Virus record (IMG/VR): IMGVR_UViG_3300042878_002054
Strand: one strand, 5' to 3'
DNA: 64,000 nucleotides
Source: an uncultured virus (IMG/VR IMGVR_UViG_3300042878_002054)
Lineage: Duplodnaviria; Heunggongvirae; Uroviricota; Caudoviricetes
Made by a program: the position numbers and the translations under genes. Shown one piece after another: positions 4,955 to 51,506 of the stretch; position 1 is the first letter of the stretch, and every line of letters begins with the position of its first letter. The notes under the pieces were generated by a model. The model saw only the letters and a list, made by a program, of their open reading frames with translations. It searched no databases and had not been told where the DNA came from.

Positions 4955-5437
4955 ATGAATATACCTTCAAAAGAAGATACTATTAAGAAGTGGGCTCCAA
5001 TTCTTGAAAGGATGGGTATGACCGGATCCAAAGCTGATTGGATGTCGGAATATGCAGAGATGCATTCTACGAATAATCATTGGGGTACGGTTGGAGATTT
5101 GAAAGACTTATCAAATACCGAATCAAATACCACAAACAAAGATTTTCCAACTCTTCTACCAATGGCCAAACAAATATTCGCAAAAACGGTAGGTCTTGAC
5201 ATAGTTCCTGTTATGCCAATCGGTGGTGGAAACTCAGGCCCAGAGATGGAATCGATCCGACAAGACGTGAAGATAGAAAATAGGGACCGAAAGATTGAAT
5301 CAATCGTCGAAGACAAAGAATTTGAAGAGATGAAAGTAGAAGACCACCCAGACTACAAAAAGTCAGTAGGACCCAGAGGAGAACTTTTCTATTTGGATTT
5401 CCAATACGGCGGAACAGAATCAAATACTATATTATGA
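4955..5437 (+). CDS. truncated major-capsid (gp23-like) N-terminal paralog carrying the RxxKI motif
   Basis: KKWAPILE, GLDIVPVMP and GPRGELFYLDFQYG resemble T4 gp23 NKWKPLLE ... FDICGVQPM.SPTGQVFALRAVYG (recalled); only 160 aa. Confidence 0.65.
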   Translation: MNIPSKEDTIKKWAPILERMGMTGSKADWMSEYAEMHSTNNHWGTVGDLKDLSNTESNTTNKDFPTLLPMAKQIFAKTVGLDIVPVMPIGGGNSGPEMESIRQDVKIENRDRKIESIVEDKEFEEMKVEDHPDYKKSVGPRGELFYLDFQYGGTESNTIL

Positions 5438-5664
5438 CAACTATATTCAAAAGTCCAGGTGTCTATACGACCGAGAGAAACTCCGACTATTGGCTTCCAC
5501 CAGAAGTGATGAAAGGTATAAGGCAAAGTGGATTGTCTATGTCCAGAAGAATGAAAATCTCAAAGATATTCAAAGATGAAAGTCTTTATCCAGTAATGAA
5601 GGATGGTCCTATAGGTTCTAATGGCACTCTTGGTACTCCAGGTATTTGTGGAAATCATTCTTAA
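5434..5664 (+). CDS. small protein with a tail-sheath-like N-terminal peptide and the RxxKI motif
   Basis: FKSPGVYTTE resembles the SPGVYxxE sheath N-terminus; RRMKISKIF. Confidence 0.55.
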   Translation: MTTIFKSPGVYTTERNSDYWLPPEVMKGIRQSGLSMSRRMKISKIFKDESLYPVMKDGPIGSNGTLGTPGICGNHS

Positions 5665-5704
5665 AAATATCGGATGGGAGTCATGAAGCGAGAATATATA
5701 CTTC

Positions 5705-6040
5705 ATGATAAACATTTATTTGATTTCTTCAGATGCAAACGGTAAAAAACTATACAAGATAGGAATAACCAAAAGATCCATTCCAGAAAGAATAAAAGAG
5801 TTTAAAACAGGAAACGCAGCAGAGCTGATAATAGTGGATTCTTTTGTTTCGAAATGGGCAAGAAAGATAGAAGCGACTTTTCATAGGTCTTTGAAACCTA
5901 AGAAAATATCAGGAGAATGGTTTGACTTAGATGAAGAAGACATAGCAACTTTTAAAAGTAAATGTCAGGCGATGCACGAGAACTTTGATATAATAGAATC
6001 TAGCAATACCTACTACATAGATAGAGGTGGAAGATTTTAA
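5705..6040 (+). CDS. GIY-YIG-like (T5orf172/MUG113-type) nuclease domain protein
   Basis: IYLI...YKIGIT..RIKEFKTGN...IEATFH...GEWF pattern. Confidence 0.75.
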   Translation: MINIYLISSDANGKKLYKIGITKRSIPERIKEFKTGNAAELIIVDSFVSKWARKIEATFHRSLKPKKISGEWFDLDEEDIATFKSKCQAMHENFDIIESSNTYYIDRGGRF

Positions 6041-6070
6041 ACAAATATACTAAAAAACAATATAAAAGAC

Positions 6071-6346
6071 ATGATTGGTTCAATGAAAGAAATGGCGATA
6101 AAAGAATATATCGCAAAGATAAACTTCAAAACAGATGACTGGAAGTTATCTCAAATAAAAGAAGATATGAGAAGATTCTTAGGTGAAGAACCAGGAATAG
6201 ATATCGTATATAAAAAAGACGTGATGGTTAATGAGTTCACAGGTGAGGCCAAAGAATTCAAAGACATCGACAAGGTGGAAATCATCTTCACCGATACTGA
6301 TGATAAATTCAAAAAATTGCAGTTTATCGTTGGCGACAAAATCTAA
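6071..6346 (+). CDS. hypothetical protein, 91 aa
   Basis: ORF with AAACAA-N16-TATAAA upstream. Confidence 0.7.
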   Translation: MIGSMKEMAIKEYIAKINFKTDDWKLSQIKEDMRRFLGEEPGIDIVYKKDVMVNEFTGEAKEFKDIDKVEIIFTDTDDKFKKLQFIVGDKI

Positions 6347-6354
6347 TCTTTTTA

Positions 6355-6573
6355 ATGAAAATTGAAAACTATTATTTAGACCTTAATAAAGTACATAAAC
6401 TAGAAGACCAGCAAGAAAGAGATCAGATACACTCTTATTATAAAGACATGCTTTATTCTATTCAGGATGGTAGAAAAGAGATGGGTATATCTATAATGAA
6501 TACACTTATCAAAAGTGGTTATCTTGTAGATTTTAGAGATGAAAAACTTACCGAGCTTTTAGATGGAAATTAA
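6355..6573 (+). CDS. hypothetical protein with C-terminal RDEKLTELL motif
   Basis: ORF; shared motif. Confidence 0.7.
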   Translation: MKIENYYLDLNKVHKLEDQQERDQIHSYYKDMLYSIQDGRKEMGISIMNTLIKSGYLVDFRDEKLTELLDGN

Positions 6574-6959: not shown

Positions 6960-8702
6960 ATGCTGATAAGCGAAATAGGAATAAGAGGCTTTAAGTCATT
7001 TGGAAACAACGAACAGACGGTAAAGTTAAATACAGAAAAAGGAGAGCTAATACTTTTAGTTGGAAACAACGGAAATGGTAAATCAAGTTTTCTTTCAAGT
7101 TTTGAATACACACTTTACGGTAAAGTAAGAGGTGGTAGACAAAAGAAGTGGAGTACACTATCTACATTACCAAACCGAATCAACGGAGAACTTTTAAACA
7201 GAATATCATTCAAATCTGGTGGTGTTGACGTAGAAATCAAAAGAGGAATATCACCGTCCAAACTTGAGCTTTGGGAAAATGGAATGCTTAATGAGAGAGC
7301 AGGAAAATCAAACATCGACGACGCAATCGAAAAGTATGTTGGTATGGATATTGAGACTTTCAAGTCTTTCATATCAATGTCAATAAATGACTTCAAAAAC
7401 TTTATATCACTATCAAATGAAGAAAAACAGCTTTTATTAGACAAACTTTTCAACCTTGAAGTGATCAACATTTTAAACGGAATTCTTAAAGACCTTAATA
7501 AATCTAATAAGACAAGAATCGCTTCTTTGGATTCAGAAATAAAAACTTTAGAAGACTCTATTGGTTCTATTCAAAAATCTATAGAAAGAACTGTTCAAAA
7601 AGAAAAGTTGAATATTCAAGCAGACATAGACGAACTTATGGAACAGATGACTGCTAAGAAAGACGACTATAAGGCTTTAAAAGAAAAGGTCGATAAAATC
7701 AAAGAAAAAGAAGAACAACTAATAACAGAAATCGATGCAGAGAAAAAACAATATATCACGGTTCAGAACGACATTAAGAACGTTCAAAGAGAGATTGATT
7801 TATATGATTCCGGGAAGTGCCCCACTTGTGGAACAGATTTTGATTCTGATCACTTTAATTCTTTAAGAGAAGCACTTGTAGAAAAGAAGACCAAATTCGA
7901 AGACGTAAAATCTACAATAGAAGCAAATATACAAACTATTAAGGATAGACAAACAAAGCTGAAAGAGATTGCAGGAACTACTACAACCACTTTTAATGAT
8001 ATGAGTTATTTCTTAAAAAATTGTAAATCTAAGATTGAAGAACTTACCAGAAAGAAAGACCAAGAATCTAAAGTAGTATCTCCAAATATCGAAGAGTTTG
8101 AAAAGTCTATTAGTGAGTTGGAAGATAAAAAGTCTTTAAGTAAAGACAATGTTGCAGTTAGTAAAGACAAAGAACTTTTCTACAAAGAACTAAACAGAAT
8201 CTTTGGTGAAGATGGTGTAAAGAAATCTATCATAGCAGGTATTATCAAACCTTTAAATCACTTTATTGGAGAAAACATTAGTAAGATGGGAATACCATTT
8301 GGTGTTAAGTTAGATGAAACATTTACTGCAGAAATAAGACAATTTGGATCTTTGATTGAAAGTGATTCTTTATCTACCGGTGAAAACAAAAGAGTGAACA
8401 TCGCAATCCTTATTGCTTACCTAAAACTTATACGTACTAAGAGACACATCAATATTCTCTTCTTAGACGAAGTCTTTTCTTCTATTGATATAGAGGGAAT
8501 AGATTCTATACTAACGCTCTTAAAATCGTTCGCAAACGAGTATAACATCAATATATTTGTAGTTCACCACGCGATTCTGAACCAAGAGATGTTCGATAGG
8601 ATTCTTAAAATAAACAAAGAAGTTTTTTCTTCTATAGAAGAAGTAAGTTATTTAGAAAACGACATATTCGGAAATGGACAAATTGGAGAAGAAACTTATT
8701 GA
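6960..8702 (+). CDS. sbcC: SbcC/Rad50/T4 gp46-like recombination ATPase
   Basis: Walker A GNNGNGKS, coiled coils, Zn-hook CPTC, signature LSTGE, Walker B FLDE, H-loop VVHH. Confidence 0.92.
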   Translation: MLISEIGIRGFKSFGNNEQTVKLNTEKGELILLVGNNGNGKSSFLSSFEYTLYGKVRGGRQKKWSTLSTLPNRINGELLNRISFKSGGVDVEIKRGISPSKLELWENGMLNERAGKSNIDDAIEKYVGMDIETFKSFISMSINDFKNFISLSNEEKQLLLDKLFNLEVINILNGILKDLNKSNKTRIASLDSEIKTLEDSIGSIQKSIERTVQKEKLNIQADIDELMEQMTAKKDDYKALKEKVDKIKEKEEQLITEIDAEKKQYITVQNDIKNVQREIDLYDSGKCPTCGTDFDSDHFNSLREALVEKKTKFEDVKSTIEANIQTIKDRQTKLKEIAGTTTTTFNDMSYFLKNCKSKIEELTRKKDQESKVVSPNIEEFEKSISELEDKKSLSKDNVAVSKDKELFYKELNRIFGEDGVKKSIIAGIIKPLNHFIGENISKMGIPFGVKLDETFTAEIRQFGSLIESDSLSTGENKRVNIAILIAYLKLIRTKRHINILFLDEVFSSIDIEGIDSILTLLKSFANEYNINIFVVHHAILNQEMFDRILKINKEVFSSIEEVSYLENDIFGNGQIGEETY

Positions 8703-8964
8703 GTGTCTAAATCTTAGGTCGCTTAAGCAAGATTTTGCAATGATGCAGAAATGGGATGACGCGGCCAGAACTCGTGAAGATGAGAGAATTTCTGTAAGAG
8801 ATATTCACAATATGCTAAATGACACGTCAGATGATGGATATGACTGGGAAGTCTACGAGAAGTCTTTCAAAGACTATTGTGAACAGAGGTTTGGTACTAC
8901 CAATGCCAAAGGCATACTAAAGATGTTAGATAGAGAAGAAAAACTAAAACAATTAGGTATTTAA
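8674..8964 (+). CDS. UVR (UvrB/C-motif)-like protein with C-terminal REEKLKQLGI
   Basis: LKQDFAMMQKWDDAARTREDE resembles the UVR motif (..FEKAAxLRD). Confidence 0.6.
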   Translation: MDKLEKKLIECLNLRSLKQDFAMMQKWDDAARTREDERISVRDIHNMLNDTSDDGYDWEVYEKSFKDYCEQRFGTTNAKGILKMLDREEKLKQLGI

Positions 8965-8976: not shown

Positions 8977-9231
8977 ATGGCAACACAATGCAATAGTACA
9001 TTAGGAACACTTACATCGGGAGCACCTGGATCATATCTTATGACCGATTCGAGTGGAACTCTTTCATGGTCGTCTAAAAATGACACGATGGTAGAGTTTG
9101 TTGAATTTGCATTAGAGATAATGGGTATCGATTTGAAGTATTCGGAGTTTGAGAAGATGTCTAGTTCTGATAGAAAAGCCATGCTTAGAGATTTGAAGAT
9201 AGATAGTGTATTAAAAGGAAAGGAGATGTAA
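8977..9231 (+). CDS. hypothetical protein with a fibre-like peptide and RDLKIDSVL motif
   Basis: GAPGSYLMTDSSGTLSWS; shared motif. Confidence 0.6.
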   Translation: MATQCNSTLGTLTSGAPGSYLMTDSSGTLSWSSKNDTMVEFVEFALEIMGIDLKYSEFEKMSSSDRKAMLRDLKIDSVLKGKEM

Positions 9232-24379: not shown

Positions 24380-24452
24380 TAAATATTACTTATCTTTTGA
24401 GTATATATTAAATCTTCTACGGTTTGTATTATCTTATCAAACATATTTTGAC

Positions 24453-24460
24453 TATATTTG
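24453..24460 (+). promoter_or_regulatory. Bacteroidota sigmaA-type -7 element TATATTTG
   Basis: Matches TAnnTTTG; 9 nt before the sirtuin ATG. Confidence 0.6.
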
Positions 24461-24469
24461 TATAATATT

Positions 24470-25183
24470 ATGGAAAAGAAGAAAATATTAGTTTTTAGCG
24501 GTGCCGGTGTCTCTAAAGAGAGCGGAATCGAGACGTTCCGAGATTCGAAAGATTCACTTTGGAACAACTATAAGATTGAGGATGTTGCAACAACAGACGC
24601 TTGGCGAAGAAATAGACCATTGGTATTAGATTTTTATAATCAAAGACGTGCTCAATTGAAAGATGTTCATCCTAATTTGGCACATCAGATAATCGCAGAT
24701 TTAGAAAAAGACTATGATGTTACATTAGTAACACAAAACGTAGACAACCTACACGAACGTGCTGGTTCTAATAATGTTATTCACTTACATGGTGAACTTA
24801 ACAAATCTCGTTCTACTTTCCCGGGCTCAACAGATTCTTATGATTGTACGGAAGATATAAAGATTGGTGACAAATGTCCACGAGGTTCACAACTTCGTCC
24901 TCATATTGTTTGGTTTGGTGAGAACTTAGATCCTATGAATATAACCACTGCAGAAGTTGCTGCAGGTAAATGTGATATCTGTATAATCGTTGGTACTTCT
25001 ATGCAAGTTTTTCCGGCAAATCAAATTCCATTCTTAACCAAAAAAGATTGTATAATATTTTATGTAGACCCAAGTGAAATGGATTTCTATGTTCCAGAAT
25101 TCAGAAATGATTTCTTTCATCACATAAAAGAACCAGCAACGACAGGAATGCAAACACTTTTAAATATTTTGAAAGATGCTTAG
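24470..25183 (+). CDS. cobB: Sir2/CobB NAD-dependent protein deacylase
   Basis: GAGVSKESGIETFR, TQNVDNLHERAG, HG, RPHIVWFGE, VGTS. Confidence 0.93.
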   Translation: MEKKKILVFSGAGVSKESGIETFRDSKDSLWNNYKIEDVATTDAWRRNRPLVLDFYNQRRAQLKDVHPNLAHQIIADLEKDYDVTLVTQNVDNLHERAGSNNVIHLHGELNKSRSTFPGSTDSYDCTEDIKIGDKCPRGSQLRPHIVWFGENLDPMNITTAEVAAGKCDICIIVGTSMQVFPANQIPFLTKKDCIIFYVDPSEMDFYVPEFRNDFFHHIKEPATTGMQTLLNILKDA

Positions 25184-25511
25184 AATATCTGAATTTCAAA
25201 GCTATAGAGATGGTGGAACCATTTCTATGCACTGTATGATGGCGGTTAGTTGGATGGAAGTACCCTATCTGGAGATGCGAAGAAATAAAGAGATTGAGAT
25301 TTGTTTAGACTTCAGATTAGGAAAAGAACCAAAGTTTTGGTTTGGATATCCAGGAAAAGAAGACTCGGAACTGATTGAAGAACAAAGTATAATAGACTAC
25401 ATAGTAAAAAAGGTAGAAGAATACAAAAAGTATCAAAACCACAAGTTGGATAGTTTTATAAACTACAGAGAGAACCTAAGAGATTGGAAAATTAAAAACA
25501 TTTTGGAATGA
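25176..25511 (+). CDS. hypothetical protein with C-terminal RDWKIKNIL motif
   Basis: ORF; shared motif. Confidence 0.7.
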   Translation: MLRISEFQSYRDGGTISMHCMMAVSWMEVPYLEMRRNKEIEICLDFRLGKEPKFWFGYPGKEDSELIEEQSIIDYIVKKVEEYKKYQNHKLDSFINYRENLRDWKIKNILE

Positions 25512-25744
25512 AAGAGATAACAACATACGAAGACCAATATGGAAAATACTACGAAGTCAAAGACTATAATGGATCGTACAAAAAGTTCGGAAACTACGAA
25601 GAAGCCAAAAACTGGTATACTTACGCTTCGAAATACTATATGAGTATAGATCCTTGTGAAGAGTCCGAAGAAGACAGGATTGCCAGAGAAGCCAGAGAGA
25701 AAGCCATAAGAAGAAACGAAAGAATTGACTCAATCTTAGACTGA
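25508..25744 (+). CDS. hypothetical protein with C-terminal RNERIDSIL motif
   Basis: ORF; shared motif. Confidence 0.7.
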   Translation: MKEITTYEDQYGKYYEVKDYNGSYKKFGNYEEAKNWYTYASKYYMSIDPCEESEEDRIAREAREKAIRRNERIDSILD

Positions 25745-25962
25745 TGTTTTATTTATACGACAAAGGAAAAGCTCAGTCGATAACTGATGCAGGAACCGAA
25801 ATACATTTACGTATGGAGAAAATGTTTCGTGCATATGGTAGAAAGACAAAAATAGAACGAATCTATGAAGAAAGACATAATAGTGTTGGATCATCTACCT
25901 CTTTTGAAGACATCCAATATAGTAGATGGAGAGAGAATACAGAAGCTGTCACAAAGCGTTGA
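25744..25962 (+). CDS. hypothetical protein with RKTKIERIY motif
   Basis: TGATG-coupled to the previous gene. Confidence 0.55.
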   Translation: MFYLYDKGKAQSITDAGTEIHLRMEKMFRAYGRKTKIERIYEERHNSVGSSTSFEDIQYSRWRENTEAVTKR

Positions 25963-26041
25963 TAGAATGTTTCGTGTCATGCACAGAAGACGATACGCTT
26001 TAGAACGAATCGTAAAAGTGAAGAAGATTTTTAATATATAG
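25865..26041 (+). CDS. 58-aa protein not in the ORF track (MKKDIIVLDH...ERIVKVKKIFNI)
   Basis: Manual translation; ends in the shared RxxK[ILV]xxIF motif. Confidence 0.55.
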   Translation: MKKDIIVLDHLPLLKTSNIVDGERIQKLSQSVDRMFRVMHRRRYALERIVKVKKIFNI

Positions 26042-26044
26042 TCT

Positions 26045-26410: not shown

Positions 26411-26419
26411 AATAAAACA

Positions 26420-26977: not shown

Positions 26978-26979
26978 AT

Positions 26980-28751: not shown

Positions 28752-28803
28752 AATATTTTGATTTTTTTTATATATTAAATTATAGATTTCGAATTTGTTT
28801 GCG

Positions 28804-28811: not shown

Positions 28812-28829
28812 TAGAATAAAACACAGACA

Positions 28830-29450: not shown

Positions 29451-29866
29451 AAGTAAAATTACAAATCAAAACAAATTGTCTAAACAAATTGATGTTTGTA
29501 AAGATATTGAAAAATCATACAGGACTTGGTCTAAAAGATTCTAAAGAAATTTGTGATAGATTACATGAATTACCTTATCAACCAGTCGAATTTTTACTTG
29601 ACCCGCCGGTTGACATCAATCCAAATGAATACGCAAAATTATTTAGAGAAGAACTATCAGAAATAGGTTTAGAGTTCAATATGTCTGGTGGTACAGATTT
29701 TGAAAGAAACAGAAAACTACTCGTTCTTGGACTTGGAGAAAAAGAAGATTATGTTTCTTTTTTAGAAGAAGCTATGATAAATCAAAAAGAATTACTTAAC
29801 TTAGCTTTAAATAAATTGTCTAAGGATGATTTGAAAGAAGTATTCGATAATATAAAAACAATATAA
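29447..29866 (+). CDS. ribosomal protein L7/L12 C-terminal-domain-like protein with RNRKLLVLGL motif
   Basis: KLMFVKILKNHTGLGLKDSKEICD matches the bL12 CTD signature TGLGLKEAKxxV. Confidence 0.7.
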   Translation: MKVKLQIKTNCLNKLMFVKILKNHTGLGLKDSKEICDRLHELPYQPVEFLLDPPVDINPNEYAKLFREELSEIGLEFNMSGGTDFERNRKLLVLGLGEKEDYVSFLEEAMINQKELLNLALNKLSKDDLKEVFDNIKTI

Positions 29867-29867
29867 T

Positions 29868-30263: not shown

Positions 30264-30264
30264 T

Positions 30265-30996
30265 ATGATAGTAGTTTGTAAAAGACCCACAAAAAGACTT
30301 ATTAAAGGAGTTCGATACGAAGTAGAGAACCTATGGAATGACGGAACTAGCCAAAGATGGGTCGAAGGTAGAGTTAGTATAAAAGATGTCGGTAGGTTTT
30401 GTGTAGGAAACTTTGTTGACACAAATGGAAACGAACTTCCTAAAGTAAAGATTGTAAAACCTTTAGCACCGATTCAAAGAATGGTTTTCTCTGATTTGAA
30501 AGAAGGAGACATATTAGTTTGTACTTCAGATAACTATAAGACCCTTTTAAAGGGTGGTATGTATCGAATAGAAAAGTTGCATTCCGTCTCTACTCAAAAA
30601 ACCGGTTGGAACAATATGCCTCACACTTATACAGAACAACATATCAAGTTCGAAGGAGTAACGAGGAAGTTGAAATTCAACACATGGACTTTCAGACAAT
30701 TGAACTCAGAAGAGTCGAGAGAGATAAGTTTAAACACGTTGCTAAATGATGAAGAAGCACCGGTCATAAAATCTCAGAACATCAAAAAAATAGATTTGAT
30801 GTCAAACAAAGACACAGTTCTTATGGAGATATTATCAAAGTCTATCATAGATCCAAATAGACATCACCTTACAATCCCGGAATGGGCTTGCGAGAAAATA
30901 GCATCAAAACTTTCATTGGTAGTATCTGACTTTGAATACCTTATGGATCTACCACTTAGAGAAGTACTTGAATTATTAGAAACCAATAACAAATAA
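30265..30996 (+). CDS. hypothetical protein with two short beta-rich repeats
   Basis: VVC...LIKGVRYEVE and LVC...LLKGGMYRIE; degenerate motif REISLNTLL. Confidence 0.7.
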   Translation: MIVVCKRPTKRLIKGVRYEVENLWNDGTSQRWVEGRVSIKDVGRFCVGNFVDTNGNELPKVKIVKPLAPIQRMVFSDLKEGDILVCTSDNYKTLLKGGMYRIEKLHSVSTQKTGWNNMPHTYTEQHIKFEGVTRKLKFNTWTFRQLNSEESREISLNTLLNDEEAPVIKSQNIKKIDLMSNKDTVLMEILSKSIIDPNRHHLTIPEWACEKIASKLSLVVSDFEYLMDLPLREVLELLETNNK

Positions 30997-31000
30997 ATAT

Positions 31001-31492: not shown

Positions 31493-31545
31493 ACCTTTTG
31501 ATTTAAAAAAGTAAAACAAACAAATAAATAAACAAAACAAAAATT

Positions 31546-33435
31546 ATGATTAGTATTTTAACAAGTTATTGGTGGATTGGAGCTTTAGCATTATGTTTAG
31601 TAATGTATAAGTTCGTCCTTAGAGTGTTCTTCGGTTTGGCAATCGTACCAGAAGACAAAATTGGTTTAGTGACCAAAAAGTTCGTTCTTTTCGGTGAGAA
31701 CAAAGAGTTAGGTGGTGATAGAATCATCGCAGTAAACGGAGAAGCAGGTTTACAAGCAAAAACTCTTTCACCGGGTTTACATTGGTGGATGTGGCCTTGG
31801 CAGTATAATGTAGACATGCAGGGATTCGTAATCATTCCTGAAGGACATGTTGGTTTAGTAAACGCTAAAGATGGTAAAGTTCCACAAACAGGACGTATCT
31901 TAGGACGTAGAGTTGAATGTGAAAACTTTCAAGACGCAGTAGGATTCCTTAATAACAATGGACAAAAAGGTCGTCAGTCTGCTTACATTCCTAACGGATC
32001 TTATAAAATCAACACACACTTATTCGAAGTATCTACAGTCGCACAGGTTCATATTCAAGAGAACATGGTGGGAATCGTTACTACATTAGATGGTGATCCA
32101 TTAGAGGCTGGACAGATTGCTGGAAAGCTTATTACAGGAAACAACAACAACTACCAAGATTTTGATGCTTTCTTAGAAGCAGGTGGTAATCGTGGTTTAC
32201 AACAACAAGTAATCTTAGCCGGTTCTTATAACTTAAATCCTTGGGCTATCAATATTGAAGAAACTCAAATGACTGAGATTGCGATTGGACACGTTGGTGT
32301 TGTTATCTCTTATGTTGGTGATGAAGGAGTAGACGTATCTGGAGATACTTTCAAACACGGTAACTTAGTTGCTAGAGGTGAAAAAGGTGTATGGGCAGAG
32401 CCACTTGGACCTGGTAAATATCCAATCAACAAATACACTAACAAGATTGAAATCGTTCCTACGACAAACTTAGTTTTAAACTGGGCGAACGCACGTTCTG
32501 AGTCTCATAACTTAGATAAAGGATTGAGTACAATCACCGTACGTTCTAAAGATGGTTTCCCATTCAACTTAGACGTATCTCAAATCATTCACATTCCTAT
32601 GAATGAAGCACCAAAAGTAATCGCTCGATTTGGAAATATGAACAACCTTGTATCTCAAGTATTAGAGCCTACGATTGGTAACTACTTCCGTAACTCTGCA
32701 CAAGATCAAGACGTTATTGCATTCTTATCTACTCGTAAAGAAAGACAAGACTCTGCAAAACACCATATCTCTAAAGTATTAGATGAATACAATGTTCACG
32801 CAGTAGATACGTTGATTGGAGATATTACTCCACCAGAATCTTTGATGAAGACTTTGACAGATCGTAAGATTGCAGAAGAGCAAGAAGTAACATTCGAAAC
32901 TCAGAAGAAAGCTCAAGTTCAACGTCAAACATTGGAAAAAGAAACAGCGATTGCTGATATGCAAGCTGAAGTTGTGAAAGCAGACCAAGGTGTTCAGATT
33001 GCCGAAAGACACGCCGATGCTTCTGTTAAGAAAGCAAAAGGTGATGCCGAATCTGTTAAAATCTCTGCATCTGCAAATGCTGAGGCTACCAAAATGAAAG
33101 CACAAGCTGACGCGACTAAAACAACATTGATTGGTAAAGCTGAGGCTGATGCTACACTTGCAAAAGGACAAGCTGACGCAGAATCTTATAGATTGGCAGT
33201 TGATGCGATGGGTAAAGAGAACTTTACAACATTCAAAGTAACTGAAGAGATTGGTAGAAACAACATCAAAATCATGCCTGATATGTTGATTGGTGGCGGA
33301 CAAAATGGTGGTGGTGGTCCAATGGAAGGCCTATTAGGATTACAAATCTTAGATATGATGGGTAAGAAAATCAATAAAGAAGATGATGTGAAAGATGTCA
33401 CTTCTGAAGAAGTAAAACCTACTAACAAAAAGTAA
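31546..33435 (+). CDS. SPFH/band-7 (flotillin-like) membrane protein
   Basis: N-terminal TM helix, repeated ..GPG.Y.IN units, TVRSKDGF, Ala/Glu-rich coiled coil. Confidence 0.88.
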   Translation: MISILTSYWWIGALALCLVMYKFVLRVFFGLAIVPEDKIGLVTKKFVLFGENKELGGDRIIAVNGEAGLQAKTLSPGLHWWMWPWQYNVDMQGFVIIPEGHVGLVNAKDGKVPQTGRILGRRVECENFQDAVGFLNNNGQKGRQSAYIPNGSYKINTHLFEVSTVAQVHIQENMVGIVTTLDGDPLEAGQIAGKLITGNNNNYQDFDAFLEAGGNRGLQQQVILAGSYNLNPWAINIEETQMTEIAIGHVGVVISYVGDEGVDVSGDTFKHGNLVARGEKGVWAEPLGPGKYPINKYTNKIEIVPTTNLVLNWANARSESHNLDKGLSTITVRSKDGFPFNLDVSQIIHIPMNEAPKVIARFGNMNNLVSQVLEPTIGNYFRNSAQDQDVIAFLSTRKERQDSAKHHISKVLDEYNVHAVDTLIGDITPPESLMKTLTDRKIAEEQEVTFETQKKAQVQRQTLEKETAIADMQAEVVKADQGVQIAERHADASVKKAKGDAESVKISASANAEATKMKAQADATKTTLIGKAEADATLAKGQADAESYRLAVDAMGKENFTTFKVTEEIGRNNIKIMPDMLIGGGQNGGGGPMEGLLGLQILDMMGKKINKEDDVKDVTSEEVKPTNKK

Positions 33436-33450
33436 TAAATACTTTATAAT

Positions 33451-33483
33451 AAAAAAGCCCTCTGAAATCAGAGGGCTTTTTTT
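33451..33483. terminator. bidirectional intrinsic terminator
   Basis: AAAAAAGCCCTCTGA-AA-TCAGAGGGCTTTTTTT. Confidence 0.9.
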
Positions 33484-33949
33484 ATGATTCAACTTCTAGA
33501 ACGTATTGTCCTGGATTTGTTTTAAAATCTTCTTTTGTCATTATAGTTATTACGGTCAGTTTAAACTCATAATCACCTGGCTGAAGTATACAAACAACGT
33601 TCAAATCGTTTGTTTTGTTTCTTATTACGAATCTGTTTGGCTCTCCTGCCTTCACTCCTCTTGTTGGGTAGTTGTCCTCGTTTTGATAGATGTCGAACTG
33701 ATCCTGCATAAGTGCGATAGTCAACTCTTCAATCGCTAATTCTACGGTTTCAATGATATCATCGTCCGTTATCATTTCACTCACACCGTGTCTCCATTGT
33801 CTATCGGCAGCATGTGGTGGCTTTTCAATCTCGATCCTTATCTCAACTGGTTGTTTTAAATAACCAATCTCTACCGGCTTTCTGGAAGCCATAGCTCTTC
33901 TGTCTATGTAAGGTCTATTGAATGCTTCAAATAATACTAAATGTTTCAT
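33482..33949 (-). CDS. hypothetical late protein, possible internal head protein
   Basis: Likely start MKHLVLFEAF at 33949; TTAATATATAG 4 nt upstream. Confidence 0.7.
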   Translation of the reverse strand: MKHLVLFEAFNRPYIDRRAMASRKPVEIGYLKQPVEIRIEIEKPPHAADRQWRHGVSEMITDDDIIETVELAIEELTIALMQDQFDIYQNEDNYPTRGVKAGEPNRFVIRNKTNDLNVVCILQPGDYEFKLTVITIMTKEDFKTNPGQYVLEVES

Positions 33950-33996
33950 ATCTCTATATATTAATAAACTTATTTCATTTTTTGGATACAATATTT

Positions 33997-34389
33997 ATGG
34001 AAAATGAGGATTTATACAGAAACTTAGTAATCTTACTAAAGATGTTCAAAAACAGGCCTTATCACCTGGCTAAATATCTTATAGAAAATTCTGCGTTCAG
34101 TCCAGAATTCATCAAAAAAGTTTCAGAAAATGGAAAGCTCACAAATCTTTCTTCGGAAGATGATGATAAAGCCAAACAACCTATATACTTTTTGGACATA
34201 GGAAAAATGAACGATTATTATAGTTCATTTACAGATGACATCAAACTTCTCGAAAAGGGAAAGACTCCGGAAGAAATAGAAGCAGACTTAAACGAAAGGT
34301 TGGATAAACTTCTATTTGAAGAGAAATATGAAGATGCTGCAAGAGTCAGAGATTATATGGCAAAGAATAAAATAAAAAGAATAAAATAG
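33997..34389 (+). CDS. protein with a C-terminal UVR (UvrB/C) motif
   Basis: LNERLDKLLFEEKYEDAARVRDY; start ATG 33997. Confidence 0.7.
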   Translation: MENEDLYRNLVILLKMFKNRPYHLAKYLIENSAFSPEFIKKVSENGKLTNLSSEDDDKAKQPIYFLDIGKMNDYYSSFTDDIKLLEKGKTPEEIEADLNERLDKLLFEEKYEDAARVRDYMAKNKIKRIK

Positions 34390-34436
34390 AAAACTTTAAC
34401 AAATAACAAACTATAAATATCATCACTCTAAAAAAT

Positions 34437-46947: not shown

Positions 46948-47262
46948 ATGAGCGATTTTGAAAACGTTGCATTTCCACACGTAAGATACATAGGTGGATC
47001 TAAATCAAAGAAGGACAAGACCGGATACTATATGGGTGGCGAGTCCGAAGAATCGGATAGTGTTCTCATATTAGGTAAAGAATACAAGCTATCCTATCTA
47101 TGGTTCTCTCCGAACAGTGAAGAGAAAAGAAGATACGTTTGGGCGTGCAAATCAGAAGATTTGACAGAGTACGGGTCAAAGAAATACGCAAACGTCAATC
47201 CAAAGAACTTTGGAACGATTGCTGATTTAAGAGAAAGAAGAATAAACCAAATATTAATATGA
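46948..47262 (+). CDS. hypothetical protein with C-terminal RERRINQIL motif
   Basis: ORF; shared motif. Confidence 0.7.
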   Translation: MSDFENVAFPHVRYIGGSKSKKDKTGYYMGGESEESDSVLILGKEYKLSYLWFSPNSEEKRRYVWACKSEDLTEYGSKKYANVNPKNFGTIADLRERRINQILI

Positions 47263-47885
47263 CAGACTTTTATAAACCAGAAGACGGAGATGTCGTGAAG
47301 ATTCTTCCTATCTTGAAGAAAGACGGAACTTTCTGTTCCTTCATAAAGACAGGATTTGTTTACTTGGCCCCAGATGGAAAACTGATATACGACCAAGCCA
47401 ACTATCTGAGAAGAATCCGTCAAAATGAATATGTTAAGAAATCTAACAAAATTCCGAACATCGGAGAAAGGTTTTGGTTCTTCGTATTGATAAACGAAGA
47501 GTTCAAATTCATGCAGACTGGTAAGAAACTTACCGATATAATAAAAAAAGGACTATATCAAGGTCAGTCGATGGGTAGTCTATTGACCGGGAATGGACAT
47601 CTGAAGATATCCAAGAAGCATGTACAGACTGGTGTGAATTCAGCTCAGTTTCCGTGCTTTGACGAATCAAAGATTGTCGAAAAGAAATGGAATTCTCCAA
47701 ATATATCAACTCAAACAGATGCAGTTGAGTGGACAATGAAAAATCAACCTATTTTTATTGAGGATTACTTAGAAAGTAATGGTATATTTGCTAATCTGAA
47801 ATTACTAAATGAATATTTCGATAATGCTTTTTCTGACCTTATAGCAGAGGATAGAAATAAAAAACTAGAGACTATAGGAATATGA
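47259..47885 (+). CDS. divergent gp32-like ssDNA-binding-fold protein with C-terminal RNKKLETIGI
   Basis: VVKILP, FKFMQTGKKLTDII, FPCFDESKI recall gp32-family IRFLP / FGKKI.D.I / NYD.S.F. Confidence 0.45.
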   Translation: MTDFYKPEDGDVVKILPILKKDGTFCSFIKTGFVYLAPDGKLIYDQANYLRRIRQNEYVKKSNKIPNIGERFWFFVLINEEFKFMQTGKKLTDIIKKGLYQGQSMGSLLTGNGHLKISKKHVQTGVNSAQFPCFDESKIVEKKWNSPNISTQTDAVEWTMKNQPIFIEDYLESNGIFANLKLLNEYFDNAFSDLIAEDRNKKLETIGI

Positions 47886-48684: not shown

Positions 48685-49251
48685 ATGGCTACAAACTTGC
48701 AGCTACCAAAGGAGAGAAACATCTACTTTTCAAAGCAGGTGGATCAATCCTCTATTGGTGATTTGACCAAAAATATCATCGAAATAAACGAAGATGACAA
48801 ACATATTAAAAAGATGTACGCTGTATACGGCATCGAATACAAGCCAAAGCCAATCAAGATATACATCGACTCTTATGGAGGTGCGGTATACCAATGTTTT
48901 GGACTTTTATCTGTAATGGAGAGAAGTAAGACTCCAATCCATACAATCGTAACAGGATGTGCGATGAGCTGTGGATTCTTAATCTTAATATCAGGACATA
49001 AAAGATTCGCTCACAAAATGTCTACACCATTGTATCACCAAGTCTCTTCTGGGGCGTTTGGAAAAGTACAGGATATGGAAGAGAAAGTTGAAGAAGCAAA
49101 AAGGCTACAGAAACAGATTGAAGAATATACTATGGAAAGAACCAATATTGAAAAGAAGAAACTTAAAAAAGTTTTAGAAAACAAAATAGACTGGTTTATG
49201 ACAGCACAAGAAGCAAAAGATTTAGGAGTTATTGACGTAATACTAGACTAA
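48685..49251 (+). CDS. clpP: ClpP-like serine protease subunit
   Basis: IYIDSYGG, GCAMSCG (Ser), LYHQ (His), DWFMTAQEAKDLGVID. Confidence 0.92.
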   Translation: MATNLQLPKERNIYFSKQVDQSSIGDLTKNIIEINEDDKHIKKMYAVYGIEYKPKPIKIYIDSYGGAVYQCFGLLSVMERSKTPIHTIVTGCAMSCGFLILISGHKRFAHKMSTPLYHQVSSGAFGKVQDMEEKVEEAKRLQKQIEEYTMERTNIEKKKLKKVLENKIDWFMTAQEAKDLGVIDVILD

Positions 49252-49253
49252 AA

Positions 49254-50519
49254 ATGGAAACTGAGATCCTGGCCAGAAAGGCCTTAGAAATATTGAAATC
49301 GAAATGGGGTCTGCCTCAAAAGGGATTTTTGGCAGGAGGCTCTTTAGCCAACACAATATGGGAATTACACTCTGGAAACCCAGCAGTTGTGAATGATCTT
49401 GATATATTCCTTTTTGAAGGAAAGATTGATAATCAAGAAGAGATAAGTAGAGAAGATTCTTTGTTTAGATTCAAAGAAGAAGATGTTAGATACTACGAAG
49501 ACTACACAGGAATGTGCTGGAATAGTTATACAAAAGACTTTTATACTATAACTTCTTCTGAAAAGAAAGGAATATTCAATGAGATTGGATATAAAGCATC
49601 TACGGATGAACAAGGTATAATCCTTAACTCTTTTGATATAAATGCAACCAGAGTAGGATATTCGATTGAAGAAGATAAGTTCTACATCACAAAGGACTTT
49701 GAAGATTTCTTAAATACTGGTGAGTTGAAGATTTGTAATATACAGACTCCTTCACACACAGCCATAAGGATTGCCAAGAAAAGTAAAGAGCTTAATGCCA
49801 AGCTTGACGAAATGGAGTTTAAACTTATCTCATATTGTTTGTCTCGATGCTTTTCCGATGTGAACAAATTTAGATTCAAAGAAAGATATTTTGAGATGTT
49901 TCAACAAAATAAAAATTTGTTAGAACCTTACTTTAAAATAGAAAGAGATAAAGAGATTGAGGAATTTCTAAAACTACATAAAAATGTTGATACTGAGTTG
50001 TATGGTCTTACGAACACTGACTACTTCTTACCGATAAAGGAACAAGAAAGTAAAGACTATGATATTCTTTCATTATTAGAAACAAACAATATCTTCAATG
50101 ATGACAACCTGGGAAAACTACATACTTCAAAAGATTTTCTTTTCTATATCAGAAACGTGTTCGGAACAGAAATGGAGCAAATCTGGGAAAAGATATACTA
50201 CTTCTACACAGATTGTGGATATGTAGATATGGAAGTTTCTAAAGAAGATCTTGACTTATTAAAAAGACTTGGTGATTATGCACCAAAGTCGATTGAGAGT
50301 CTTAAAGGAATGAAGATGTCTCAACAGCTTTCTTTGGTAAAAAAGCTGTTGGATATATACAAAGAAGATCCTATAATAGCAATCTCTATTTTAGAGAAAG
50401 GTAATGTCGGTCTTTATGATGATTTAGATGATGAATGTAATCAACTTCTTTTAGAACTAAGCGTTCGTAAAGAGATTGTGAACGACACAAAAAACAAAGT
50501 CGGAAATATATTAGGATAA
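49254..50519 (+). CDS. nucleotidyltransferase (Pol-beta superfamily)-like protein
   Basis: FLAGGSL...NDLDIF and FDIN motifs. Confidence 0.6.
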   Translation: METEILARKALEILKSKWGLPQKGFLAGGSLANTIWELHSGNPAVVNDLDIFLFEGKIDNQEEISREDSLFRFKEEDVRYYEDYTGMCWNSYTKDFYTITSSEKKGIFNEIGYKASTDEQGIILNSFDINATRVGYSIEEDKFYITKDFEDFLNTGELKICNIQTPSHTAIRIAKKSKELNAKLDEMEFKLISYCLSRCFSDVNKFRFKERYFEMFQQNKNLLEPYFKIERDKEIEEFLKLHKNVDTELYGLTNTDYFLPIKEQESKDYDILSLLETNNIFNDDNLGKLHTSKDFLFYIRNVFGTEMEQIWEKIYYFYTDCGYVDMEVSKEDLDLLKRLGDYAPKSIESLKGMKMSQQLSLVKKLLDIYKEDPIIAISILEKGNVGLYDDLDDECNQLLLELSVRKEIVNDTKNKVGNILG

Positions 50520-50576
50520 AGCCAGAACTTTATAACAATAGGTTTATATAAATAAAACAAAAAACAATATAATAAT

Positions 50577-50921
50577 ATGATTGCATATATTACTGAATTA
50601 AATACAGAAAACTTTGAAAGTTTTACAAAAAATGAACTAACTTTAGTAGATGTTTGGGCTCCTTGGTGTGGACCGTGCAAAATGATTTCTCCTTTAGTAG
50701 ATGAAATCTCAAATACGTATCACGGAAGATTGTCTGTTGGTAAACTTAACGCAGATGAGAACAGAGACATCGTTGCTGATCTTGGTGTTAGAAACATCCC
50801 TACTATTCTTCTTTACAAAAACGGAGAGTTGGTAAAAGACGAAAACGGAGTTATTGAAAAACTTGTAGGTTCTGTTGATAGACAAAAATTGACAGACTTT
50901 GTAGAAAAACAATTAAACTAA
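50577..50921 (+). CDS. trxA: thioredoxin
   Basis: WAPWCGPCKMI, cis-Pro motif NIPT. Confidence 0.95.
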   Translation: MIAYITELNTENFESFTKNELTLVDVWAPWCGPCKMISPLVDEISNTYHGRLSVGKLNADENRDIVADLGVRNIPTILLYKNGELVKDENGVIEKLVGSVDRQKLTDFVEKQLN

Positions 50922-50927
50922 TCCTTT

Positions 50928-51506
50928 ATGAAACCAATCAATAAAATATTCGAATATCTTAAAGAATCGAATCTTACTATGATTGGCTATAAGTACCAGG
51001 ATGAACGGATAAAAGACGAACTCATTTCAAAATTACCTCACATAGAGATTTTTGAATTTGATTCGTCTTTTTCTGTTATGTCTGCCTTAAAGCGAACAAT
51101 AAGAGATAAAAAGATTGGCTCTGTGTTGGATGGTGAAGAATTTTCAAATACAAACTTTTTAGTAGTCGATTTGGGAAATTTCAGCATGTCAAAATCAGAA
51201 TCTGCATTTGAAAGGAGTAGACACATATCTGAATTTGTCGGACAAATGAGAAAAGAGGTGTTGGAAACCAAATATAGTTTGATTATACTCTCACCAGTAA
51301 ACTCAACAATGGGATCTGCCTTAGGTAATGATATACCATCTTTCAGTGGAGGAAATAGAAGCATTTACATGGCAGACATGGCTTATGTGATAGAAGGAAG
51401 AAAAATAAAGATAATAAAGAACAGATTCGATGGTGATAATATAACAATATCGCTTGATAATCTAAAAGATTATAAGTACATTTGTAGCTATGAAAATAAC
51501 AAGTAA
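50928..51506 (+). CDS. degenerate RecA/DnaB-fold fragment without Walker A, carrying RDKKIGSVL
   Basis: FLVVD, IILSPVN, SGG.RSIYMAD, IIKNRFDG; no GxxxxGK[ST]. Confidence 0.55.
   Translation: MKPINKIFEYLKESNLTMIGYKYQDERIKDELISKLPHIEIFEFDSSFSVMSALKRTIRDKKIGSVLDGEEFSNTNFLVVDLGNFSMSKSESAFERSRHISEFVGQMRKEVLETKYSLIILSPVNSTMGSALGNDIPSFSGGNRSIYMADMAYVIEGRKIKIIKNRFDGDNITISLDNLKDYKYICSYENNK
51453..51484 (+). promoter_or_regulatory. Bacteroidota sigmaA-type promoter CTTG-N20-TACATTTG
   Basis: 5 nt before the smpB ATG. Confidence 0.55.

Follow-up and report, generated by a model that had tools for sequence, protein, structure and literature searches.

Within a 64,000-nucleotide stretch of an uncultured tailed virus (hereafter the window), the original prediction listed some 14 small proteins that share a short peptide and little else, and it proposed that this peptide docks many cargo proteins onto a single partner. 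The question raised by this locus is whether such a tag exists as a unit of its own and, if so, what might read it. The analysis of the encoded proteins and of related huge phages suggests that the tag is a short C-terminal helix, its arginine invariant, and that it behaves as a portable label for docking or addressing.

Occurrence of the tag in the window

All 14 listed motifs translate as given (Table 1), although three of them depart from the expression proposed for them: RDRKIESIV ends in V, RKTKIERIY ends in Y, and REISLNTLL has S at position 4. Using the pattern R..[KR][ILV]..[ILV][LFG], we found 11 matches among the 58 curated proteins of the window (20,828 aa in total; gene calls from a crude in-house caller), eight of them at most five residues from the C-terminus, as originally counted. 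In 300 within-protein shuffles the mean number of matches was 0.49 (maximum 3) in total and 0.013 (maximum 1) at the C-terminus, and neither observed value was attained in any shuffle; both frequency and terminal bias are thus far above the null expectation. Reversed or respaced control patterns gave one or two matches each in the same proteins. All 11 matches lie in plus-strand genes (8,564 aa) and none in the minus-strand genes of the window (12,264 aa), in line with the strand restriction first reported. An independent profile, for which 126 tags of LR745206.1, a relative, were used and window sequences excluded, recovers 10 of the 58 window proteins at a threshold of at least 5 bits, against 0-1 matches in each of 20 shuffled window proteomes (six in total).

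Table 1. Tag copies, doubtful and rejected candidates, and a context gene in the window (bits refer to the LR745206.1-derived profile)
Feature	Position	Strand	Carrier	Place in carrier	Bits	Status
RDWKIKNIL	25479..25505	+	25176-25511, ORFan, 111 aa	1 residue before stop	12.9	tag
RNERIDSIL	25712..25738	+	25508-25744, ORFan, 78 aa	1 residue before stop	8.2	tag
RDLKIDSVL	9187..9213	+	8977-9231, 84 aa	5 residues before stop	10.8	tag
REEKLKQLGI	8932..8961	+	8674-8964, 96 aa	extreme end	8.8	tag, 'LGI' flavour
RDEKLTELL	6535..6561	+	6355-6573, 72 aa	3 residues before stop	6.5	tag
RERRINQIL	47230..47256	+	46948-47262, 104 aa	1 residue before stop	9.5	tag
RNKKLETIGI	47853..47882	+	47259-47885, 208 aa	extreme end	6.4	tag
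RDRKIESIV	5282..5308	+	4955-5437, 160 aa	internal, residues 110-118	10.3	tag
RDKKIGSVL	51102..51128	+	50928-51506, 192 aa	internal, residues 59-67	8.4	tag
RRMKISKIF	5545..5571	+	5434-5664, 76 aa	internal	5.4	borderline
RIVKVKKIF	26006..26032	+	25865-26041	2 residues before stop	<5	doubtful, strict pattern
RNRKLLVLGL	29705..29734	+	29447-29866	internal	<5	doubtful, strict pattern
RKTKIERIY	25840..25866	+	25744-25962	internal	<5	doubtful
REISLNTLL	30718..30744	+	30265-30996		<5	rejected
TKNKVGNILG	50490..50519	+	49254-50519	end	<5	rejected
ClpP-like protease gene	48685..49251	+				context only; Pfam CLP_protease, E 1.5e-29

The top score in the window belongs to RDWKIKNIL, whose carrier has no homologue among the compared relatives W01, W02 and W04. 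For the carrier of RDLKIDSVL, the orthologues in LR745206.1 (42% identity) and LR756502.1 (47%) both have RDIKIKRVL, and the LR745206.1 orthologue of the REEKLKQLGI carrier retains REIKLKQLG at 30% identity. For 6355-6573, all 43 of 43 metagenome orthologues (51-96% identity) share R61, K64 and L69, and the tag is also retained in LR745206.1 and LR756504.1. The end of 47259-47885 conforms to R-x-K-K-L-x-x-[IL]-[GA]-[IL] in 71 of 72 metagenome homologues, the 72nd being a 118-aa fragment, and orthologues at 28-31% identity carry the 'IL' flavour of the tag. Among internal copies, both orthologues of 50928-51506 (34% identity) have the tag at the corresponding place; for 4955-5437, the LR756502.1 orthologue has RDGKIDSII and that of LR745206.1 has no pattern match. 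The borderline RRMKISKIF represents an 'IF' flavour typical of mini-proteins and seen in 35-75-aa proteins of LR745206.1.

Three further copies are doubtful. The open reading frame of RIVKVKKIF overlaps 25744-25962 by 98 nt; the carrier of RNRKLLVLGL has an LR756502.1 orthologue with RESKLLSLG and a tag-free one in LR745206.1; and no orthologue of the RKTKIERIY carrier was found in the compared relatives. Two candidates were rejected. REISLNTLL lacks K or R at position 4 and is not a tag, since neither of two orthologue pairs (58% and 40% identity) retains it and the orthologues are tag-free. TKNKVGNILG, the tail of a protein that is Gad2-like in the protein atlas, is likewise retained in neither of two pairs, the orthologues (53% and 49% identity) ending otherwise.

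Sequence and shape of the tag and nature of its carriers

The consensus consists of [S/T]-K-x-E-hydrophobic followed by R-[D/E/N]-x-K-[I/L]-x-x-[I/L]-[L/G/I/F], zero to two residues and the stop. The tag is an amphipathic, N-capped helix of ~13 residues that forms a unit by itself. The conserved residues 1, 4, 5, 8 and 9 follow a helical periodicity and share one face, on which R1 and K4 are joined by hydrophobic side chains at 5, 8 and 9. Of 157 tags in LR745206.1, 46 have S, T or D at position -4, 59 have K at position -3, and 92 lie 0-2 residues from the stop; charged residues are common after the end of these tags, and an acidic or amide residue is frequent after L9. Approximately one-fifth of tags lie inside the protein or close to its N-terminus. 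The role of positions 2 and 6 is apparently limited to helix stabilisation: their polarity is acid then base in LR745206.1 (23:0) and base then acid in LR756504.1 (14:2), and this swap between clades is more in keeping with an i,i+4 salt bridge than with contact with a reader. In the AF2 model of 6355-6573 (44 orthologues, pLDDT 89), residues 1-59 fold into a body and residues 60-70 form a terminal helix, the latter predicted with lower confidence; together with the one-face periodicity, this model agrees with the helical nature first proposed for the motif. A search of solved-structure chains with the tag profile gave no match at E up to 10.

The carriers are small ORFans that look like host-takeover proteins. 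The bodies of 139 of them fall into 138 BLAST clusters, 123 of 126 carriers belong to no Pfam family, and tag-only mini-proteins exist. In the 157 tags of LR745206.1, the codons chosen for R, K, I and L match the usage of the genome (for example, AGA 0.73 vs 0.77), which together with synonymous variation under the motif in the window indicates conservation at the protein level and not a DNA repeat. The tag is retained in 11 of 14 best-hit pairs and in orthologues at 28-59% identity, and in one alignment the identity is 0.98 for the core tag vs 0.79 for the body. The idea of a portable element on otherwise unrelated, non-structural proteins, kept while the bodies diverge, is therefore supported.

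Distribution among huge-phage relatives and promoter context

In this phage and its closest relatives the tag is found on about one protein in six, and tagged genes make up 13-17% of the complete tag-bearing relatives. At least 5 bits are reached by 160 of 964 proteins of LR745206.1, 139 of them with a C-terminal tag, as compared with one in the shuffled proteome. Pattern matches (total/C-terminal) number 162/128 in LR745206.1, 171/128 in LR756502.1 and 73/55 in LR756504.1, which has a variant tag, whereas LR756501.1 (12/1) and LR756500.1 (10/1) remain at background, though their genomes are equally large. In LR756504.1, 109 of 869 C-termini contain the variant, 'R...I..L'; the LR745206.1-derived profile, which under-counts it and finds three, detects no tag in either of the two Lak phages. 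One of the two tag-less huge relatives has a different C-terminal tag. The clades thus differ (RxxK type, DPYGEExW or none) at equal distance, the mean identity to LR745206.1 over 85 proteins being 40.9% for LR756504.1 and 40.2% for LR756501.1.

Operons with a TAnnTTTG motif hold 71 of 128 tagged genes of LR745206.1 vs 223 of 836 others. At the operon level, the corresponding ratios are 37/69 vs 51/273 in this genome and 33/59 vs 46/282 in LR756502.1; the association fails in LR756504.1 (7 of 55 tagged genes vs 287 of 896 others). In the window, an ATATATA-type motif is found on most minus-strand structural genes, and the tagged arrays are mostly without it. Given the meanings that we assume for the two motifs, this promoter proxy suggests that tagged genes are mostly non-late. 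A separate N-terminal tag, MK[HY][LI]Kx[YF]xxFE[SA], is present on other proteins: its strict form on 25, none of which bears the C-terminal tag, and its loose form on 57, with two overlaps. The head-gene promoter motif accompanies 20 of 25, 26 of 31 and 7 of 7 N-tagged genes in three genomes, whereas C-tagged genes are mostly without it in two of three genomes.

Candidate readers of the tag

The best overall explanation, which we hold with modest preference, is a portable C-terminal docking tag with a common reader, the Clp system being the preferred one. Its parts differ in strength: a docking tag that is portable, acts at the protein level and has a single common reader is likely, a phage-encoded reader has roughly even chances, and the assignment of this role to ClpC-ClpP is tentative. 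The tag would be appended to small, fast-evolving, otherwise unrelated proteins, and its constant face would plug into the clade's own Clp protease, composed of a ClpC-type unfoldase that has apparently lost its usual N-domain and of two canonical ClpP proteins. It could then act either as a degron clearing early proteins or as an adaptor tether delivering whatever the body has bound.

Clp AAA+ machines recognize C-terminal degrons and adaptor tethers, such as ssrA-type tags and SspB- or MecA-type adaptors; a degron is a terminal peptide on unrelated proteins read by one unfoldase-protease, and the adaptors normally use the N-domain of the ATPase. The predicted layout of a folded body with a terminal element is similar. 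Two canonical ClpP genes are present in each of the three tag-bearing complete genomes and in neither of the two tag-less huge relatives. The AAA_2 ATPase of tag-bearing genomes has a V-G-F loop, presumably for ClpP docking, and a UVR-type middle region; unlike usual Clp ATPases, it has no adaptor-binding Clp_N domain. In LR756501.1, the homologous ATPase does possess Clp_N but not the V-G-F loop, and the genome encodes no ClpP partner. The ClpP-like gene of the window is a weaker paralogue, present in tag-less LR756500.1 too. Several observations count against a Clp reader. Both Lak phages encode one canonical ClpP yet have no tag by the profile, and the co-occurrence may represent one evolutionary event, as only three genomes bear the tag and two of them are closely related. 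The degron option is disfavoured by internal tags and by the charged residues that often follow, a feature at odds with degrons that depend on a free non-polar end, and the N-capped helix with its invariant arginine is also unlike Clp degrons.

Clp is a candidate by co-occurrence only, and so is the PrkA (AAA+)-YeaH (DUF444)-SpoVR trio, which matches the tag distribution at least as well as Clp (three of three tag-bearing genomes vs none of seven others). This trio, or a MoxR-like ATPase with a vWA-metallopeptidase, would bind, remodel or clip tagged proteins, and we regard this as rather improbable. The trio is encoded in LR745206.1, LR756502.1 and LR756504.1 but in neither LR756501.1 nor LR756500.1; PrkA is also missing from five additional tag-less phages. 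It is unusually conserved (PrkA 84/64%, DUF444 75/49% and SpoVR 78/55% identity; capsid protein 76/53%). In LR745206.1, a gene of 46 aa that consists of the tag only is located between prkA and yeaH; in LR756502.1, yeaH is followed by a tagged homologue of this mini-gene (40 aa) and by another tagged gene, of 61 aa. However, tagged neighbours are often expected by chance when 13-17% of genes are tagged, and the phylogenetic caveat is the same as for Clp. We found no mechanistic paper on the trio in a literature search. For the MoxR AAA+/vWA-metallopeptidase pair of group 2.2 jumbo phages, a role in virion assembly was proposed in the consulted part of Iyer et al. (2021, PMC7824862), which has no mention of a shared tag. 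A DUF2201_N metallopeptidase, a point in common with that system, adjoins a 731-aa C-tagged protein that precedes it and whose LR756502.1 orthologue is tagged too. Because its homologues occur in the two tag-less huge genomes as well as in the other three, this peptidase does not discriminate.

Equally doubtful is a host hub (protease, chaperone, ribosome or polymerase) whose docking helix the tag would mimic. Different hosts would then be reflected in clade-specific tags, which agrees with the differences between equally distant clades and with the host-takeover appearance of the carriers. On the other hand, the contact face is constant across genomes only about 41% identical, and the structure search returned no matching chain.

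It is unlikely that the tag loads proteins into the capsid by docking on an acidic scaffold or shell interior, for packaging and injection like T4 internal proteins or encapsulin cargo. The phage has T4-like head genes (Gp23, Portal_T4, Terminase_6N). Upstream of the LR745206.1 capsid gene lies a 707-aa protein of net charge -73 with ~13 acidic amphipathic repeats and a poly-acidic stretch; such repeats make up one tagged protein of 66 aa, and another tagged protein, of 243 aa, is paralogous to the capsid protein. The repeat-bearing scaffold, however, also occurs in tag-less LR756501.1, and the N-terminal tag goes with the head-gene promoter motif, which makes a procapsid role of the C-terminal tag less likely; the N-terminal peptide has, from these sequence patterns, probably taken the capsid address already. 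In the available text of Rao and Black (2010, PMC3012670), the capsid targeting sequence (CTS) of T4 internal proteins is located at the N-terminus and directs them into the scaffolding core. Like the CTS as described there, the tag is a short conserved peptide that forms the sole shared part of diverse, fast-evolving phage proteins and would act as an address; unlike it, the tag is C-terminal, sits on 13-17% of genes mostly without the head-gene motif, and coexists with a separate CTS-like N-terminal tag on other proteins.

Mutual pairing of tags with no reader, for instance as antiparallel helices with the arginine facing the partner's terminal carboxylate or acidic cap, would make tagged proteins co-assemble and could draw on tags near the stop, acidic or amide residues after L9 and tag-only mini-proteins, but it is highly improbable, as promiscuous pairing among ~140 proteins seems costly and R and K amid the hydrophobic face disfavour a parallel zipper.

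The view that no described system matches the tag agrees with our literature search, which returned no description of it, the consulted part of PMC7824862 included. With close to one-tenth of the proteome tagged, the scale is comparable to that of large effector repertoires. Type IV secretion effectors and encapsulin cargo are many unrelated proteins addressed to one machine by one short C-terminal signal. The tag has no sequence likeness to these signals, the profile search of solved-structure chains being negative, and its carriers are phage ORFans with no secretion system or shell operon linked. With one shared face fitting one reader, for which we prefer the clade's own Clp protease, the tag would bring many different protein bodies to the same machine.

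The tag in the window and in related huge phages

All 14 copies of the short helical tag R-x-x-[KR]-[ILV]-x-x-[ILV]-[LFG] that the original prediction had listed translate at their coordinates as it gave them. The pattern as first written has 11 matches in the 58 window proteins compared with a mean of 0.49 in 300 shuffles, and the C-terminal bias claimed for it holds, as eight of the 11 lie near the C-terminus against 0.013 in shuffles. Respaced or reversed control patterns matched one or two times each, which together with the shuffles rules out an origin by chance or composition. A profile built solely from the tags of the relative LR745206.1 recognizes 10 of the 58 window proteins, and 0-1 per shuffled proteome. 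Every pattern match falls in a plus-strand gene, as had been stated. Two proposed copies, REISLNTLL and the tail of 49254-50519, were dropped because they are missing from orthologues, and RKTKIERIY, RIVKVKKIF and RNRKLLVLGL, which score below 5 bits with the profile, are doubtful as tags. The small ORFs 25744-25962 and 25865-26041, which share 98 nt read in different frames, both contain a tag-like motif; the gene structure at this site is uncertain, and a frameshift is possible. Three metatranscriptome runs yielded only short contigs, 90-99% similar to parts of 24400-34399, and these give next to no cover of the tagged array 25068-25735 and do not bear on its transcription or timing.

The window is a 64-kb piece, with ~34% G+C, of an uncultured huge phage, in which small-gene arrays on the plus strand are interspersed among known non-structural genes, and giant structural genes with collagen or P-domains (Pfam) occupy the minus strand. 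Other Pfam matches are to S21, DnaJ, Sir2, CoaE, an SPFH protein, an S1-domain protein, an NAD-dependent ligase, a sigma factor, a ClpP-like protease, thioredoxin, SmpB and an SbcC-like protein. For comparison we used the complete genomes of five relatives, LR745206.1 (634,780 bp), LR756502.1 (642,428 bp), LR756501.1 (735 kb), LR756504.1 and LR756500.1, where a crude gene caller of our own predicted 964, 989, 1036, 951 and 692 genes, respectively. A conserved 1082-aa window protein is 70% and 69% identical to its homologues in LR745206.1 and LR756502.1, and 25-42% identical to those in the other three genomes, the Lak phages, PTm1, MA9V-1 and PAU. The viral_contigs set contained no relative of the 208-aa tagged protein 47259-47885, and a search for exact matches to the window end gave none.

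The tag is a genome-wide trait of one clade. In LR745206.1, 160 of the 964 proteins score at least 5 bits with the profile, 139 of them at the C-terminus, against one in the shuffled proteome, and tagged genes occupy 25 of the 26 bins of 25 kb across the whole 635-kb genome. Pattern matches (total/C-terminal) number 162/128 in LR745206.1, 171/128 in LR756502.1 and 73/55 in LR756504.1, versus 12/1 and 10/1 in the tag-less relatives LR756501.1 and LR756500.1. LR756504.1 uses a variant at the extreme end, R-K-x-K-I-[E/D]-[E/D]-L-L, and 109 of 869 C-termini in this genome contain 'R...I..L'. The LR745206.1 profile, which is blind to such diverged variants, finds merely three tags in LR756504.1, none in MA9V-1, PAU, PTm1 and Lak-A2, and in Lak-B4 a single match with stop codons inside. 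The tag-bearing LR756504.1 and the tag-less LR756501.1 are equally distant from LR745206.1, with mean identities over 85 proteins of 40.9% and 40.2% and capsid protein identities of 53% and 52%.

Different C-terminal sequences were observed in the two tag-less genomes. LR756501.1, in which the RxxK tag is absent, has a very sharp tag, ..R[VI]F[S/T]x[L/E]-DPYGEExW-[D/N/E] (loci L092-L128), on ~45 proteins of 55-843 aa. In LR756500.1 (loci L129-L152), 17 proteins, mostly of ~255 aa, end in NADDFG[FL][FLI]DN; as they are mostly paralogue-like, this ending may be a family feature and not a portable tag. LR745206.1 encodes much host-like machinery: translation components (EF-G, many aminoacyl-tRNA synthetase fragments, peptide deformylase), 59 tRNA genes by ARAGORN, two of them unassigned, the chaperone and stress proteins DnaK, DnaJ, GrpE, PrkA, YeaH and SpoVR, and envelope proteins that are TonB-dependent receptor-like or have type IX secretion C-terminal domains.

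Selection on the peptide, helix anatomy and carriers

Conservation at the protein level, as originally predicted, was confirmed for 47259-47885, whose tag is kept in 71 of 72 metagenome homologues, with core tag positions 0.98 identical compared with 0.79 for the body. Across 43 orthologues of 6355-6573 (72 aa), R, K and L9 are invariant and the x positions vary. The tag occupies the same place in 11 of 14 best-hit pairs (28-59% identity) between the window and the three tag-bearing genomes, and one of the three missing pairs is no orthologous pair, the match being to a capsid protein; for six window carriers these genomes contain no detectable homologue. The 157 LR745206.1 tags encode R, K, I and L with the same codon usage as the genome at large, and a DNA repeat, promoter or ribosome-site signal is therefore rejected.

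Upstream of these 157 tags, position -4 is S, T or D in 46 and position -3 is K in 59; E is common at -1, as is I or L at position 0, followed by the consensus R-[D/E/N]-x-K-[I/L]-x-x-[I/L]-[L/G/I/F]. The tag ends directly at the stop in 12 cases, one residue before it in 51 and two in 29 (92 in total), and K, D, N or I directly follows it in 105. Positions 0, 1, 4, 5, 8 and 9 lie on a single helix face centred on the arginine, and a membrane-binding helix was set aside because R1 and K4 lie within this hydrophobic face. Positions 2 and 6 carry an acid then a base in LR745206.1 (23:0) and a base then an acid in LR756504.1 (14:2), a swap of polarity that we read as an intrahelical salt bridge and not as contacts with a reader, the putative common partner of the tag; if so, all three tag-bearing genomes share one contact face. 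The AF2 model of 6355-6573 (44 sequences, pLDDT 89) consists of a body at residues 1-59 (pLDDT 85-97) and a helix at residues 60-70 (pLDDT ~72), and for 47259-47885 AF2 gave no usable model (pLDDT 44). A Foldseek search with the 72-aa model found no PDB match at E<1, and the tag profile had no matches to PDB sequences up to E 10.

The carriers are small, with a median length in LR745206.1 of 98 aa versus 158 aa for non-carriers; 61 of the 206 proteins of 60-100 aa are tagged, compared with none of the 148 of 250-500 aa, and some carriers of 35-50 aa are scarcely more than the tag itself. Their bodies are mutually unrelated (138 BLAST clusters from 139 proteins), and 123 of 126 carriers in LR745206.1 have no Pfam family, the other three being two helicases with an internal match and a protein with a weak UVR motif. 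In the window, only two Pfam matches were obtained for carriers, both weak and unrelated (Ribosomal_L12, SerK_C). Several mini-proteins with an 'IF'-flavour tag, in LR745206.1 and at 5434-5664 in the window, have the N-terminal motif F-x-x-P-G-hydrophobic-[Y/W] (FKSPGVY in the window), which resembles the start of contractile-sheath proteins. In LR745206.1, two tagged genes of 110 and 181 aa lie between phage grpE and dnaJ (460828-463475, minus strand) and a tagged 210-aa gene adjoins a canonical clpP (122918-124221, minus strand); LR756502.1 lacks homologues of all three tagged genes.

Expression timing was approached through promoter motifs, a proxy and not expression data. Two motifs are enriched upstream of LR745206.1 genes: an ATATATA-type motif, located before the genes for terminase, portal, scaffold and capsid, and TAnnTTTG, which we liken to the housekeeping -7 element of Bacteroidota. 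C-tagged genes belong to TAnnTTTG operons in 71 of 128 cases compared with 223 of 836 other genes in LR745206.1 (operons, 37/69 vs 51/273), and in 54 of 128 compared with 265 of 861 in LR756502.1 (operons, 33/59 vs 46/282). This association fails in LR756504.1 (7/55 vs 287/896). Of the 128 C-tagged genes in each of these two larger sets, the head-gene motif alone precedes 30 in LR745206.1 and 60 in LR756502.1. In the window, the ATATATA-type motif is found on most minus-strand structural genes and is mostly absent from the tagged plus-strand arrays.

The tag is a real, protein-level, portable C-terminal helix on small ORFans that are mostly not late-looking, and most likely it labels them for docking to one putative reader. 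Literature searches at the level of titles and abstracts gave no description of this tag, nor did the passages of PMC7824862 consulted.

Candidate readers and competing explanations

We rank the candidate readers in the order Clp protease, PrkA trio, host hub and capsid. In the small comparison set of five complete huge genomes, 40 untagged LR745206.1 proteins are common to LR756502.1 and LR756504.1 and missing from LR756501.1 and LR756500.1. Of these five, only the three tag-bearing genomes have two canonical ClpP genes. Their AAA_2 ATPase combines a V-G-F loop with a UVR-type middle region and lacks a Clp_N domain; in LR756501.1 the homologue carries Clp_N without the loop, and that genome provides no ClpP partner for it. 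The window has just one weaker ClpP-like gene. Against a Clp reader, however, both Lak phages possess canonical ClpP without a detectable tag. A Clp C-terminal degron needs a cognate unfoldase and ClpP, and a ClpC-type ATPase and two canonical ClpP are encoded in all three tag-bearing complete genomes. Such a degron is located at the extreme C-terminus and has a non-polar free end; the tag lies 0-2 residues from the stop in 92 of 157 cases and more than six residues inward in 31, and is often followed by K, D, N or I. A tether of the SspB/MecA type combines a folded substrate-binding body with a terminal docking element; the one usable AF2 model, with its lower-confidence terminal helix, may have such a layout. 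The PrkA-YeaH(DUF444)-SpoVR trio is conserved above the level of the capsid protein and absent from all seven tag-less genomes, and tag-only mini-genes lie inside or beside its operon in LR745206.1 and LR756502.1. The candidacy of both Clp and the trio is drawn from co-occurrence in genome sequences, which may reflect one evolutionary event.

Two other enzymes considered as readers do not discriminate between tagged and tag-less genomes: the DUF2201 vWA-metallopeptidase is present in all five, and the M16 peptidase 27011-28117 has a 50%-identical homologue in tag-less LR756501.1. The latter is encoded on the minus strand and retains its HLMEH zinc site; four of the five huge genomes conserve it. 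No Pfam or PHROG match was obtained for the 421-aa protein 49254-50519, whose gene separates the ClpP-like gene from thioredoxin; in its nearest protein-atlas clusters (score 0.98), 35-57% of members carry Gad2, the anti-defence family that counters Gabija.

An unlikely alternative is that the tag is an address for loading proteins into the capsid. It has some links to the head: a C-terminally tagged capsid-protein paralogue (243 aa) in LR745206.1, a tagged mini-protein made of scaffold repeats, and the very acidic, repeat-rich scaffold. The last, a 707-aa protein encoded upstream of the LR745206.1 capsid gene (198546-200669), resembles a protease-scaffold fusion; its net charge is -73, and it contains ~13 tandem acidic repeats of 11-13 residues as well as a poly-acidic stretch. 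Over 61% of its length, the window protein 4955-5437 (160 aa, internal tag) shares 33% identity with the gp23-like major capsid protein of LR756504.1. The T4 capsid targeting sequence is N-terminal on its carrier, whereas the present tag is C-terminal (within six residues of the end in 126 of 157 LR745206.1 copies and near it in 8 of 11 in the window). T4 carriers are made late, with the head proteins, which by the promoter proxy most C-tagged genes of LR745206.1 and LR756502.1 do not appear to be, and the prohead protease removes the T4 sequence after loading.

A separate set of proteins, found in all five huge genomes, has the N-terminal motif MK[HY][LI]Kx[YF]xxFE[SA]; window copies are listed in the table. 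In LR745206.1 its strict form is present in 25 proteins, none of them C-tagged, and its loose form in 57, with two overlaps. The head-gene motif stands on 20 of 25 (LR745206.1), 26 of 31 (LR756502.1) and 7 of 7 of these genes. In these phages the N-terminal tag probably acts as a T4-style capsid targeting sequence, a concept outlined in PMC3012670. Because of the T4-like head genes and the head-gene promoter motif it is a likelier candidate for that role than the C-terminal tag, and it argues against a capsid address for the latter.

Window genes with the N-terminal motif
Feature	Coordinates	Strand	Remark
N-tag	33482-33991	-	motif from 15th codon
N-tag	28157-28687	-	motif after poly-K start
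N-tag	4624-4917	+	weak match

Overlap with the following gene is commoner among tagged genes (62% of 96 vs 35% of 310), and so is a TGA stop (41/121 vs 69/416). We read both excesses as a reflection of dense gene arrays, not as a cause, and consider a role of the nascent peptide in termination or re-initiation highly improbable. Encapsulin cargo genes adjoin the shell gene and their peptide binds the shell interior, whereas the carriers here are scattered genome-wide. HeH/SAP domains comprise two helices with a conserved turn, whereas the carriers stop directly after a single helix; SAP- or HeH-type Pfam models gave no match to window carriers up to E 0.01, and HeH/SAP and clamp-binding (PIP-like) readings gained no support, Pfam finding no such domain. 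Mimicry of a tmRNA tag was set aside, as ARAGORN detected a tmRNA in neither the window nor LR745206.1.

Implications for huge-phage proteomes

The docking-label reading may be extended, tentatively and with more doubt than confidence, to a proteome-wide tagging system of the huge phages' own. A clade-specific C-terminal helix would mark more than 100 early ORFans for one phage AAA+ machine, ClpC-ClpP or PrkA-YeaH-SpoVR, which would either clear the early proteome on schedule or employ the tagged proteins as an adaptor library for delivering host targets to a phage protease. The swapping of the tag in sister clades, as with DPYGEExW in the 735-kb phage, would point to co-evolution of tag and reader, and such different tags suggest a general organising principle of huge-phage proteomes.

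About a seventh of the genes in the largest known phages are 'dark matter' of no known function. The shared tag places more than 100 such genes in one functional class, and its partner offers a common handle on them. The tag could also serve as a portable biotechnology label in Bacteroidota hosts. Should the reader prove to be a protease or remodelling ATPase of the phage, the system would amount to virus-encoded, targeted turnover of proteins in bacteria, or to host takeover by way of adaptors.
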